Source of the DNA: Escherichia coli | GTDB taxonomy: Bacteria > Pseudomonadota > Gammaproteobacteria > Enterobacterales > Enterobacteriaceae | Length of the DNA stretch: 33,046 nucleotides | NCBI RefSeq assembly: GCF_003334815.1 | Contig: NZ_QOWO01000041.1 | Reading direction: 5' to 3' (one strand) | Shown here: piece after piece, positions 1 through 7,244 of the stretch | Layout of the letters: every line of letters begins with the position of its first letter | Position numbering within the stretch: position 1 is the first letter of the stretch | Notes under the pieces: model-generated | Databases searched by the model: none | The model's input: the letters and a program-made list of their open reading frames with translations, nothing else | Told to the model about the DNA's origin: nothing | Translations under genes and position numbers: made by a program

Positions 1-77
1 ACCATTTGATCATATGACAAGATGTGTATCCACCTTAACTTAATGATTTTTACCAAAATCATTAGGGGATTCATCAG
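1..77 (-). mobile_element. IS10 (Tn10-type, IS4 family) outside end, partial; element body lies beyond the window start
   Basis: Reverse complement of 1-77 reads CTGATGAATCCCCTAATGATTTTGGTAAAAATCATTAAGTTAAGGTGGATACACATCTTGTCATATGATCAAATGGT, which I recognise as the IS10 outside terminus including the GATC Dam site in the pIN region. Match ends at position 77. Confidence 0.7.
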
Positions 78-191
78 GACAAAGCGGGTGTAAATTGAGG
101 GAATACAACGTATCGCAAAAAAGCAGAAACGTAACAGACTCGGAGTCAGTGAATAACTCAGGTATTGGGTTATCAGCTAATATCGAGACTC

Positions 192-224
192 AAAAAATGG
201 AAAAACCCGCTCGACGGCGGGTTT
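192..224 (-). terminator. Rho-independent terminator on - strand (candidate phage late-region terminator)
   Basis: Inverted repeat AACCCGC/GCGGGTT (204-210 with 217-223), 6-nt loop, followed on the - strand by TTTCCATTTTTT. No U-run on the + strand. Confidence 0.5.
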
Positions 225-650
225 AAGCTGTGTGACGAAGTAACCACTCTTAACAGCATAACCAATTTTTTACGTACGTAAACCACTAAATGATATTTGC
301 GAGAATGCTACCGAGTATTGAAAACACCACTACAAATACATAAGCAAATCTCAACAAATAACCAACAAATAATTTCCAGCGTTATTTTTAGCTGGTTTAA
401 ATTGAATCTTCAAATTATAGAGCACTTATAAATAACAGCCATTAATATAAATTGGCTAATAGATTTATTTTTATTCAGCCAAGAGCCATGAATAGGATTC
501 GATAGAAAAAGTTCAGATAAAAATAGAGATCTACTTCACAAATCAAATGAGAAACCAAAACTTACATCTTGAAATAATCACATTGATTAGATGAATATTT
601 ATCGCGCAGTGACATCATTTTTTAATAATAGTTCAAAAAAAGGGCTCACG

Positions 651-1733
651 ATGAAAAAATTAACAGTGGCAATTTCTGCTGTAGCTGCATCAGTACTGAT
701 GGCGATGTCTGCTCAGGCAGCTGAAATTTATAATAAAGACAGTAACAAGCTGGATCTGTACGGGAAAGTTAATGCTAAGCACTACTTCTCCTCTAATGAT
801 GCAGATGATGGTGATACTACTTATGCCCGTCTTGGCTTCAAAGGTGAAACCCAAATCAACGATCAACTGACTGGTTTCGGTCAGTGGGAATATGAATTCA
901 AAGGCAACCGCGCTGAATCTCAAGGTTCCTCCAAAGATAAAACCCGTCTTGCCTTCGCTGGCCTGAAATTCGGTGACTACGGCTCCATCGATTATGGCCG
1001 TAACTACGGTGTAGCATACGATATTGGTGCATGGACCGACGTTCTGCCAGAATTCGGTGGCGATACCTGGACCCAAACAGATGTATTCATGACTGGTCGC
1101 ACCACAGGTGTTGCAACTTATCGTAACAATGACTTCTTTGGTCTGGTTGATGGTCTGAACTTTGCTGCTCAGTATCAGGGTAAAAATGACCGCACTGACG
1201 TAACTGAAGCTAATGGTGATGGTTTCGGTTTCTCCACTACTTATGAGTATGAAGGATTCGGTGTAGGTGCAACCTATGCTAAATCTGACCGCACTAATAA
1301 TCAGGTTATCTACGGTAACAACAGCCTGAATGCATCTGGTCAAAATGCTGAAGTATGGGCAGCTGGTCTGAAATATGATGCGAACAACATCTATCTGGCT
1401 ACCACCTATTCTGAAACCCAGAACATGACTGTTTTTGGTAATAACCATATTGCCAACAAAGCACAAAACTTCGAAGTAGTTGCACAATATCAGTTCGACT
1501 TCGGTCTGCGTCCGTCCGTTGCTTACCTGCAATCTAAAGGAAAAGACTTGGGTGCGTGGGGTGATCAGGACCTGGTTGAATATATTGATGTAGGTGCAAC
1601 CTATTACTTCAACAAAAATATGTCCACTTTTGTTGATTACAAAATCAACCTGATTGATAAGAGCGATTTCACGAAAGCATCTGGCGTTGCTACCGATGAT
1701 ATCGTTGCTGTAGGTATGGTTTACCAGTTCTAA
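651..1733 (+). CDS. Phage-encoded OmpC-family outer membrane porin (Lc/NmpC-like), 360 aa precursor
   Basis: ORF 591-1733 trimmed to ATG at 651 ([23 protein letters not shown] signal peptide with AQA-AE cleavage motif). Gly/Tyr/Asp-rich beta-barrel composition and C-terminal VGMVYQF ending in Phe. Opposite strand to Q, as for nmpC in DLP12. Confidence 0.9.
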
Positions 1734-1748
1734 TTTGATTACTAAAAG

Positions 1749-1782
1749 ATATGTTGCGGGAGGCTTTGCCTCCCCAACATAT
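1749..1782 (+). other. Long near-perfect hairpin (about 15 bp stem, 3-nt loop) just downstream of the porin stop
   Basis: ATATGTTGCGGGAGGC / GCCTCCCCAACATAT inverted repeat. On the - strand it is followed by CTTTTAG, so it may act as a weak terminator or RNA-processing structure for either strand. Confidence 0.45.
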
Positions 1783-1869
1783 AAGTGGCTCCCTCAAGCC
1801 ACTTCCTTTAGGAGCACAACCTTGCTTCTAACTATATAAACCTTCTGTTATATATTACCCTTTATTTTT

Positions 1870-1895
1870 GGGGGCGTCTCAACGCCCCATTTTTA
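1870..1895 (+). terminator. Rho-independent terminator for the porin transcript
   Basis: GGGGCG-TCTCAA-CGCCCC stem-loop followed by ATTTTTAATAATTTTT. Confidence 0.55.
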
Positions 1896-1921
1896 ATAAT
1901 TTTTAGTAAACAATTGGCATA

Positions 1922-5312: not shown

Positions 5313-5594
5313 ATGAGTATCAATGAGTTAGAGTCTGAGCAAAAAGATTGGGCGTTATCAATGTTGTGCAGATCCGGTGTCTTGTCTCCATGCAGACATC
5401 ACGAAGGTATTTATGTAGATGAAGGTATAGATATAAAGTCGGCATACAAATATTCCATGAAGGTTTATAAGTCTAATGAAGACAAATCCCCATTCTGCAA
5501 TGTGCGAGAAATGACTGATACCGTGCAAAATTATTATCACGAGTACGGTGGAAACGATACTTGCCCTCTCTGTACAAAACATATAGATGATTAA
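5313..5594 (+). CDS. ea8.5: Ea8.5-like protein (93 aa), Cys/His-rich
   Basis: 93-aa ORF between ea22 and xis, same length and position as lambda Ea8.5; contains C...C...H and C...C motifs. Confidence 0.7.
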   Translation: MSINELESEQKDWALSMLCRSGVLSPCRHHEGIYVDEGIDIKSAYKYSMKVYKSNEDKSPFCNVREMTDTVQNYYHEYGGNDTCPLCTKHIDD

Positions 5595-5614
5595 ACCCAA
5601 TATTACATAACAAT

Positions 5615-5640
5615 CCTCGCACTCGCGGGGATTTTTTTTA
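5615..5640 (+). terminator. Rho-independent terminator downstream of ea8.5
   Basis: CCTCGC-ACTC-GCGGGG stem-loop followed by ATTTTTTTT. Confidence 0.6.
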
Positions 5641-5682
5641 TCTGAACTCACTACGGCGAGTTTTGTTTTATGGAGATGATAA

Positions 5683-5850
5683 ATGCACTTCCGAGTCACA
5701 GGAGAATGGAATGGAGAGCCATTCAACAGAGTTATCGAAGCCGAGAACATCAGCGACTGCTATGACCACTGGATGCTGTGGGCGCAGATAGCACATGCAG
5801 ACGTAACCAATATTCGAATTGAAGAACTGAAAGAACACCAAGCCGCCTGA
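5683..5850 (+). CDS. Lambda orf55-like small protein (55 aa)
   Basis: ORF not in the supplied track (below its length cutoff): MHFRVTGEWNGEPFNRVIEAENISDCYDHWMLWAQIAHADVTNIRIEELKEHQAA. Lies between ea8.5 and xis where lambda carries orf55. Confidence 0.5.
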   Translation: MHFRVTGEWNGEPFNRVIEAENISDCYDHWMLWAQIAHADVTNIRIEELKEHQAA

Positions 5851-5862
5851 TGGCGGTTTTTT
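5842..5862 (+). terminator. Weak stem-loop plus T6 overlapping the orf55 stop
   Basis: CCGCC-TGAT-GGCGG followed by TTTTTT. Confidence 0.35.
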
Positions 5863-5889
5863 CTTGCGTGTAATTGCGGAGACTTTGCG

Positions 5890-6108
5890 ATGTACTTGAC
5901 ACTTCAGGAGTGGAACGCACGCCAGCGACGCCCAAGAAGCCTTGAAACAGTTCGTCGATGGGTACGCGAGTGCAGGATATTCCCTCCTCCGGTTAAGGAT
6001 GGAAGAGAGTATCTGTTCCACGAATCAGCGGTAAAGGTTGACTTAAATCGACCAGTAACAGGTAGCCTTTTGAAGAGGATCAGAAATGGGAAGAAGGCGA
6101 AGTCATGA
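5890..6108 (+). CDS. xis: Excisionase Xis (72 aa)
   Basis: MYLTLQEWNARQRRPRSLETVRRWVRECRIFPPPVKDGREYLFHESAVKVDLNRPVTGSLLKRIRNGKKAKS recognised as lambda Xis. Overlaps the int start by 23 nt as in lambda. Confidence 0.9.
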   Translation: MYLTLQEWNARQRRPRSLETVRRWVRECRIFPPPVKDGREYLFHESAVKVDLNRPVTGSLLKRIRNGKKAKS

Positions 6109-7156
6109 GCGCCGGGATTTACCCCCTAACCTTTATATAAGAAACAATGGATATTACTGCTACAGGGACCCAAGGACGGGTAAAGAGTTTGGATTAGGCA
6201 GAGACAGGCGAATCGCAATCACTGAAGCCATACAGGCCAACATTGAGTTATTTTCAGGACACAAACACAAGCCTCTGACAGCGAGAATCAACAGTGATAA
6301 TTCCGTTACGTTACATTCATGGCTTGATCGCTACGAAAAAATCCTGGCCAGCAGAGGAATCAAGCAGAAGACACTCATAAATTACATGAGCAAAATTAAA
6401 GCAATAAGGAGGGGGCTGCCTGATGCTCCACTTGAAGACATCACCACAAAAGAAATTGCGGCAATGCTCAATGGATACATAGACGAGGGCAAGGCGGCGT
6501 CAGCCAAGTTAATCAGATCAACACTGAGCGATGCATTCCGAGAGGCAATAGCTGAAGGCCATATAACAACAAACCCTGTCGCTGCCACTCGCGCAGCAAA
6601 ATCAGAGGTAAGGAGATCAAGACTTACGGCTGACGAATACCTGAAAATTTATCAAGCAGCAGAATCATCACCATGTTGGCTCAGACTTGCAATGGAACTG
6701 GCTGTTGTTACCGGGCAACGAGTTGGTGATTTATGCGAAATGAAGTGGTCTGATATCGTAGATGGATATCTTTATGTCGAGCAAAGCAAAACAGGCGTAA
6801 AAATTGCCATCCCAACAACATTGCATGTTGATGCTCTCGGGATATCAATGAAGGAAACACTTGATAAATGCAAAGAGATTCTTGGCGGAGAAACCATAAT
6901 TGCATCTACTCGTCGTGAACCGCTTTCATCCGGCACAGTATCAAGGTATTTTATGCGCGCACGAAAAGCATCAGGTCTTTCCTTCGAAGGGGATCCGCCT
7001 ACCTTTCACGAGTTGCGCAGTTTGTCTGCAAGACTCTATGAGAAGCAGATAAGCGATAAGTTTGCTCAACATCTTCTCGGGCATAAGTCGGACACCATGG
7101 CATCACAGTATCGTGATGACAGAGGCAGGGAGTGGGACAAAATTGAAATCAAATAA
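6086..7156 (+). CDS. int: Tyrosine integrase Int (356 aa), lambda type
   Basis: MGRRRSHERRDLPPNLYIRNNGYYCYRDPRTGKEFGLGRDRRIAITEAIQANIELFSG... recognised as lambda Int. C-terminal catalytic region with HxxR...Y (HELRSL ... HLLGHKSDTMASQY). Confidence 0.95.
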   Translation: MGRRRSHERRDLPPNLYIRNNGYYCYRDPRTGKEFGLGRDRRIAITEAIQANIELFSGHKHKPLTARINSDNSVTLHSWLDRYEKILASRGIKQKTLINYMSKIKAIRRGLPDAPLEDITTKEIAAMLNGYIDEGKAASAKLIRSTLSDAFREAIAEGHITTNPVAATRAAKSEVRRSRLTADEYLKIYQAAESSPCWLRLAMELAVVTGQRVGDLCEMKWSDIVDGYLYVEQSKTGVKIAIPTTLHVDALGISMKETLDKCKEILGGETIIASTRREPLSSGTVSRYFMRARKASGLSFEGDPPTFHELRSLSARLYEKQISDKFAQHLLGHKSDTMASQYRDDRGREWDKIEIK

Positions 7157-7244
7157 TGATTTTATTTTGACTGATAGTGACCTGTTCGTTGCAACAAATT
7201 GATAAGCAATGCTTTTTTATAATGCCAACTTAGTATAAAAAAGC
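7157..7244. other. attL (P' arm with Int arm-type sites plus 15-bp core TTAGTATAAAAAAGC), prophage/chromosome junction
   Basis: 7230-7244 is the reverse complement of the lambda att core GCTTTTTTATACTAA. 7157-7229 matches the lambda P' arm (TTTTGACTGATAGTGACCTG, i.e. CAGTCAAAA and AGGTCACTAT arm sites). Flanking GCAGGCTTCA matches the bacterial attB arm next to ybhC. Confidence 0.8.

Follow-up and report, generated by a model that had tools for sequence, protein, structure and literature searches.

Organization of the locus beside ybhC

The window analysed here is a stretch of 33,046 nucleotides of Escherichia coli DNA (contig NZ_QOWO01000041.1 of RefSeq assembly GCF_003334815.1), and our subject is the remnant of a lambdoid prophage that lies within its first 7,244 positions, next to the host gene ybhC. 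A preliminary description, made from the sequence alone, had taken the whole of the 7.2 kb before ybhC to be prophage DNA, a statement that holds for positions 78-7244 and fails for positions 1-77, which form the end of an insertion sequence (IS), IS10/ISVsa5. The same description regarded the prophage as a mosaic of a lambda-like left part and a DLP12-like right part, and direct sequence comparison bears this out. When the int-to-porin segment was searched against lambda and DLP12, as had been proposed there, homology was found to both, so the open reading frames of the segment are lambdoid; the records of phages 82 and PA-2 were not among the matches in the phage collections searched. The boundary between prophage and host is marked by two features:

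7157-7265, minus strand: attL; P' arm with the Int arm-type and IHF sites at 7157-7229, 15-bp core O at 7230-7244, bacterial B arm from 7245
7291-8574: ybhC, the host gene beyond the B arm

A recognizable attL, in which the P' arm and 15-bp core are fused to the bacterial arm, had been claimed at this position, and the claim is confirmed by comparison with lambda. From the int stop codon through the core (7157-7244, comprising the P' arm and the core), 88/88 positions are identical to lambda 27724-27811, and the window has a single copy of the 15-bp lambda core, GCTTTTTTATACTAA (minus strand, 7230-7244), where chance would give 0.04. Past the core lies the bacterial B arm, which reads CCGTTGAAGCCT on the opposite strand. 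The site is B-O-P' in the orientation expected of a lambda lysogen, with int adjoining the gal-side gene ybhC.

The lambda-like arm extends from position 3161 to the core and contains the following features, in order of position:

3161-3607, plus strand: exo remnant, corresponding to lambda Exo residues 78-226 only (96.6% amino acid identity)
3604-3786, plus strand: orf60a (96.7% amino acid identity to lambda)
3759-3950, plus strand: orf63 (92% amino acid identity to lambda)
3931-4242, plus strand: orf61, degenerate, with an in-frame stop at codon 10 and a 3' end shifted relative to lambda
4341-4562, plus strand: orf73, encoding a TraR/DksA-family RNA-polymerase-binding protein (71/73 residues identical to lambda Orf73)
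4559-5110, plus strand: ea22-like gene, internally mosaic
5313-5594, plus strand: ea8.5 (91/93 residues identical to lambda)
5683-5850, plus strand: orf55 (53/55 residues identical to lambda)
5890-6108, plus strand: xis, excisionase (71/72 residues identical to lambda Xis, 98.6%)
6086-7156, plus strand: int, full-length lambda integrase (353/356 residues identical, 99.2%)

Positions 3161-7244 align to lambda (NC_001416) 31794-27724 in three pieces, at 97.3% (3161-4587), 90% (4811-4921) and 98.3% (5087-7244) identity. The ten genes that the preliminary description had listed for this arm as lambda-like, from int to the exo remnant, are all found to be so, with the corrections that orf61 is degenerate and that ea22 is a mosaic. 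Lambda homology within ea22 ends at 4587 and restarts at 5087, and the middle section between these points (4588-5086) is non-lambda and resembles the Ea22-like genes found in phages Gally, Cyrano and PhiR5_1 (approximately 93% identity). A usable open reading frame in the orf61 region (4027-4242) matches gp35 of phage ev243. Int differs from the lambda protein by the substitutions H164P, A245T and I248V, and all six catalytic residues (R212, K235, H308, R311, H333 and Y342) are present. Orf73 retains the N-terminal DxxDxA motif and matches TIGR02419; the function of the lambda protein has been described (PMC9239242).

The remaining prophage DNA, positions 78-3160, is of the DLP12 type and is organized as follows:

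78-650: AT-rich stretch (31-35% GC), flanked on one side by the porin gene and on the other, beyond the window, by the holin gene essD
651-1733, plus strand: intact porin gene, OmpC-family, NmpC/Lc-type, antiparallel to Q and encoding 360 amino acids with a signal peptide
1734-1897, plus strand: structured 3' untranslated region of the porin gene, with an intrinsic terminator at its end (hairpin 1871-1888 and a T run)
1922-2305, minus strand: Q, a QuuD-type late antiterminator (127/127 residues identical to K-12 QuuD)
2391-2531, minus strand: ylcG (NCBIfam YlcG, 75 bits; 93% amino acid identity to DLP12 YlcG)
2528-2890, minus strand: intact rusA, Holliday-junction resolvase (119/120 residues identical to DLP12 RusA; NCBIfam RusA, 277 bits)
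2887-2976, minus strand: remnant of ybcO (DUF1364), its final 29 codons (stub 2890-2976), for which tblastn matches YbcO residues 68-96 only
3100-3160, minus strand: stub of ninX (DUF2591), its final 20 codons (3100-3159)

This arm is 98.0% identical to phage ev243 (43296-40212), and within it positions 1692-2976 are 98.2% identical to K-12 DLP12. The genes rusA, ylcG and Q (QuuD type) run in one direction and are followed by the antiparallel OmpC-family porin gene, so that order and orientation match those of DLP12, at 93-100% amino acid identity. The earlier assignment of this part, from ybcO to the porin gene, to a DLP12-type arrangement therefore stands, except that what had been called ybcO-like is a 29-codon stub and that a ninX stub has to be added. 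An intact ybcO, which would belong upstream of rusA in a module of the DLP12 type, is not found there; the corresponding stretch is marked 'incomplete' by PGAP in strain 52F4, and ev243 carries ybcO in the same remnant state.

The product of Q matches PHROG 79 (anti-termination Q-like) at 1e-52, and the only hit in a PDB search was a remote one, to the structure of an 'Antiterminator Q protein' (6jnx/6p18; 8e-7), which is uninformative for subtype. The protein is unrelated to lambda Q, which gave no match. The porin scores 518 bits against NCBIfam porin OmpC (cut-off 484), matches OmpC/OmpK36 structures in the PDB at about 1e-135, and is 98% identical in amino acid sequence to the ev243 porin; at the nucleotide level the gene is 90.7% identical to K-12 nmpC. 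Its promoter is presumably held by the AT-rich region at 78-650. The 3' region of the gene corresponds to that of DLP12 nmpC, with 227/235 positions identical at 1691-1925. A DLP12 small RNA of 167 nt, IpeX, is processed from the phage porin transcript according to a review (PMC12197685), and the structured 3' untranslated region in the window likely contains an IpeX counterpart, as judged from this similarity. An Rfam scan at gathering thresholds found no family within 1-7244, the IpeX-like 3' untranslated region included.

On the minus strand, positions 224-203 form a GC-rich hairpin that runs into a stretch of T, and essD is expected to start approximately 140 nt downstream of it. The hairpin may terminate the late transcription unit before the lysis genes, or it may simply close a transcript that arrives from upstream.

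A central deletion joins the two arms

The two arms meet at positions 3160/3161, where the ninX stub on the minus strand abuts the exo remnant on the plus strand. The match to ev243 breaks off at position 40212 of that phage, and the match to lambda begins at lambda position 31794; comparison with both parental types revealed no microhomology at the join. The segment that is missing corresponds to 29992-40211 of ev243 (about 10.2 kb), which in that phage carries the 5' end of exo, bet, gam, kil, N, rexAB, cI, cro, cII, O, P, ren, ninB, a methyltransferase gene, ninE and most of ninX. The genes bet, gam, kil, cIII, N, cI, cro, cII, O, P, ren and most of the nin genes are accordingly absent from the window. 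The term cryptic, applied to this prophage in the preliminary description, is thereby justified inside the window itself, since the exo remnant is joined directly to the ninX stub with about 10.2 kb gone. The genes outside the deletion are all intact except for orf61, the exo remnant and the ybcO and ninX stubs.

We searched 5,426 complete E. coli genomes, from which all counts given below are taken, and found the exact exo/ninX deletion junction in one of them, that of strain 52F4. This is a Swiss calf isolate whose chromosome was completed independently, and of the 27,223 positions that align with the window only 3 differ. Two of these differences, at window positions 3165 and 4218, lie inside the prophage and are the only mismatches over window 78-7400. 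The exo/ninX junction of 52F4 is identical to that of the window base for base apart from one single-nucleotide polymorphism: position 3165 is A in the window and G in both 52F4 and lambda, a change from TGG to TAG at 3164-3166 that makes the stop codon in the exo remnant specific to the window.

In 52F4 the prophage can be followed from attR beside ybhB to attL beside ybhC, over 22.2 kb (NZ_CM147848, 1,885,976-1,908,146). At attR, a second core is present at 4997-5011 of the extracted locus, and lambda homology then runs from lambda position 27742 leftward to 21824, covering the P arm and the b region. Starting from attR, the element comprises the lambda b-region genes ea59, ea31 and ea47 together with tfa, 99.2% identical to lambda; an stf-type tail fibre gene that is more diverged (81-87%); a fragment of lom; and a fusion of J to the terminase gene, by which the head and tail genes have been deleted. 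After the fusion, toward the porin arm, come nu1 and cos, bor and Rz, and rrrD and essD. The gene annotation read outward from the side of the window gives the corresponding series essD, rrrD, rzpD, bor, nohD, the terminase/J fusion, tail fibre genes and b-region genes. The genes ea59 (AAA ATPase) and ea31 (HNH endonuclease) are intact in 52F4 at 99% identity to lambda (locus 5762-8226), despite the loss of head and tail genes.

These comparisons bear on two other accounts of the join. On the first, the lambda-like prophage would be intact and inducible, with its genes for immunity and replication located further left, beyond the window, an idea to which the intact state of int, xis and attL, and of Q, rusA and the porin gene, lends some substance. 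Lambdoid immunity and replication genes, however, sit between exo and nin, the very regions that are joined at 3160/3161, and in 52F4 the head and tail genes are deleted as well. We rejected an intact prophage on the ground that the deletion junction lies inside the window, and regard it as extremely improbable. The second account holds that the join is an assembly chimera of a lambda-like prophage and a separate DLP12-like one. The window does look like a short-read contig bounded by repeats, and repeats among lambdoid prophages do cause misjoins, but the join has no shared repeat on which an assembler could have collapsed the two, and the same join is present in the independent complete chromosome of 52F4. 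Its recurrence there led us to reject a chimera, which we consider very improbable.

The mosaic is moreover a phage mosaic and not the product of chromosomal rearrangement, because the flanks of the 52F4 prophage are collinear with K-12 from bio to gal; a chromosomal rearrangement between two prophages was rejected on the same collinearity. A lambda left arm beside a Q region of the DLP12 type would instead be an instance of the modular build that is usual among lambdoid phages.

The IS10 end and the limits of the window

The left end of the window is occupied by a feature that had been overlooked:

1-77, minus strand: outside end of an IS10/ISVsa5 (IS4-family) copy, whose transposase gene would read leftward, out of the window

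These positions are identical at 77/77 to many copies of the IS, and in strain 203740 the same 77-base end lies 31 bp from a coding sequence annotated 'IS4-like element ISVsa5 family transposase'. The window holds the end of the element only, not a complete copy. Position 78 of the window corresponds to a point 14 bp upstream of the start codon of essD (holin) in 52F4, so that the IS end occupies the place at which the lysis cassette would be expected to start. At this point no IS is present in 52F4, nor in any other of the complete genomes searched. If the IS entered by simple insertion, GACAAAGCG would be the 9-bp duplication expected around it. The junction of IS10 with prophage DNA (window 1-400) is spanned in none of the complete genomes.

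At the opposite end of the window, positions 32764-33046 contain two tRNA-Lys(UUU) genes and an RtT-family match (Rfam); the last tRNA-Lys gene, 32972-33046, is part of a repeated array and is cut by the end of the window. The window is thus probably a complete contig assembled from short reads that stops at a repeat on either side, IS10 on the left and tRNA-Lys on the right. In the host DNA between ybhC and ybhJ, tandem REP/BIME-type repeats (window 8590-8790) give rise to two near-identical spurious open reading frames, and an Rfam naRNA4/REP match at 8643-8713 scores 60.7 bits against a gathering score of 59.5.

Distribution of related prophages

The attL junction was searched with a query composed of the int 3' end, P', the core, the B arm and the region upstream of ybhC. 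A lambda-type attL junction was found in 1,920 of the complete genomes (about 35%); in genomes that lack the int/P' half of the query, the match begins only at window position 7226. Related prophages are present in dozens of natural isolates. Two other E. coli strains share both arms with the window and carry central deletions of their own: in EC416 (locus 5904-6472) the deletion joins bet' to ren', and in F247 (locus 4054-4981) it joins ea10 to a truncated methyltransferase gene. The immunity and replication region at attλ has therefore been lost independently more than once, which is the usual pattern of prophage decay. These different central deletions in several lineages give a tidy picture of that process, though not a new one.

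The natural distribution of such elements also argues against the remnant being a defective lambda prophage made in the laboratory, of the type carried by recombineering strains. Prophages engineered in this way are located between ybhC and bio (PMC9239242), and the IS10 end might hint at Tn10 genetics. However, the identity to lambda is only 97-98% and ea22 is a mosaic; there is no cI857 and no pL; the right arm is of the DLP12 type with a porin gene, unlike such constructs; and the nearest genome is that of a Swiss calf isolate, with related prophages in dozens of natural isolates. An engineered lambda remnant was rejected on its divergence, the mosaic ea22 and the natural relatives, and we attach next to no probability to it.

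Discussion

Taken together, the attL, the two arms and their junction make it very probable that the remnant at 78-7244 is the attL-proximal third of a defective lambda-family prophage, integrated by Int at the canonical attB between ybhC and ybhB. We found nothing in the sequence evidence that contradicts a defective prophage at attλ. Both the type of element and its site are already well known, as this is a defective lambdoid prophage at the best-known of phage attachment sites, and neither is new.

Four points weigh against this assignment or parts of it. The continuation of the element leftward to attR is seen only in its near-identical relative 52F4, from which the structure in the source strain would have to be extrapolated. 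In the source strain IS10 could mark a deletion or an inversion and not a simple insertion. The likeness of the right arm to phage 82, which had been proposed alongside that to DLP12, rests on a published similarity between DLP12 and phage 82. Finally, the silence that we ascribe below to the two arms would depend on the loss of pL and pR and on a crude consensus scan for promoters.

The deletion has predictable consequences for expression of the remaining genes. Both arms have lost pL and pR, because both are transcribed away from the 3160/3161 junction. A scan of positions 1-7400 with the sigma-70 consensus gave 6 sites, fewer than the 15 expected from shuffled controls, and hence no promoters in excess of chance; neither a promoter at the deletion junction or downstream of Q, nor the late promoter pR', nor a qut site was located in it. 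We infer that int, xis, orf73, rusA and Q are essentially silent. With pL gone, and with pI requiring CII, which is also gone, there would be no source of Int or Xis, and the element by itself would therefore be incapable of excision or replication and would give no immunity. Expression would be likely only for genes that have promoters of their own, namely the porin gene with its IpeX-like 3' untranslated region. A superinfecting lambdoid phage could still use the att sites and homologous arms as substrate for Int-mediated or homologous recombination.

An alternative to passive decay is that the element has been domesticated, with the module of porin and IpeX, and perhaps int-xis or orf73, under selection, and with the outward promoter of IS10 feeding the porin gene. 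The promoter pOUT of IS10 can read outward, and here the outside end faces the porin gene from 573 bp upstream. The genes outside the deletion are intact save for the few exceptions given above, and at least three lineages have lost the central region by different deletions yet kept both arms. The intact state of the genes is also to be expected after a recent deletion, however, given only 3 differences from 52F4 in 27 kb; a central deletion is the usual first step of neutral prophage decay; and a transcript from the IS10 end would have to pass the hairpin at 203-224 before it reached the porin gene. We consider domestication unlikely. Somewhat more doubtful still is a fuller scenario in which the porin and its IpeX-like 3' untranslated region would have been kept to remodel the outer membrane or to exclude phages, IS10 would uncouple the lysis cassette from Q-dependent late transcription while feeding pOUT transcription into the porin gene, and the repeated deletions would reflect selection to disarm the prophage while keeping its arms.

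As a decaying defective prophage, the remnant matters little beyond correct annotation. Its correct label is a defective lambdoid prophage at attλ with a late region interrupted by IS10, and it is not to be counted as inducible. For work with the strain, attλ is occupied, so that lambda-based integration tools would meet attL and attR instead of attB, and there would be no lambda immunity. The extra intact OmpC-family porin could alter outer-membrane permeability and phage receptor profiles, and the homologous arms would let superinfecting lambdoid phages pick up the QuuD-porin-lysis module.

Comparison with known lambdoid elements

Prophages at ybhC-ybhB have been listed for E. coli B (lambda-B) and for the Crooks strain (lambda-Cr) (PMC3032704). 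Lambda-B in REL606 (locus 17953-30060) occupies the same site as the remnant described here, and its Int and Xis proteins are identical to those of 52F4 (WP_000533643 and WP_001303849), whereas its interior beyond xis/orf55 is unrelated and encodes ASCH and DUF4752 proteins, acyltransferases and another terminase. From this comparison, the int-xis-att module has apparently been swapped among different lambdoid backbones.

The window shares with lambda itself the gene order of the left arm and the P' arm and core of attL. It differs from lambda in the truncation of exo, the replaced middle of ea22, the degenerate orf61, the loss of everything from bet to ninX, and a Q that is not of the lambda type. 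With DLP12 (ybcO-rusA-ylcG-quuD-nmpC-essD) it has in common the order and orientation of the genes, including the antiparallel porin gene. DLP12 is integrated at argU by IntD, whereas the element in the window is at attλ by way of lambda Int. The porin gene of the window is intact and without IS5, and is only 90.7% identical in nucleotides to nmpC of DLP12; upstream of rusA the window has the 29 codons of ybcO and then ninX, where DLP12 has ninE/ybcN.

No other single record matches the right arm as well as phage ev243 (NC_049955), a complete phage genome of 45,560 bp, and the match takes in the ybcO remnant, ninX, rusA, ylcG, Q and the porin gene; window positions 3161-4536 match ev243 too, at 95.5%. 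The phage retains full early, immunity and replication regions and structural genes, and its integrase gene, which is adjoined by ompT, gives no alignment to the int of the window. The prophage of 52F4 is essentially the same element as that in the window and differs in having no IS10 upstream of essD and no TAG in the exo remnant.

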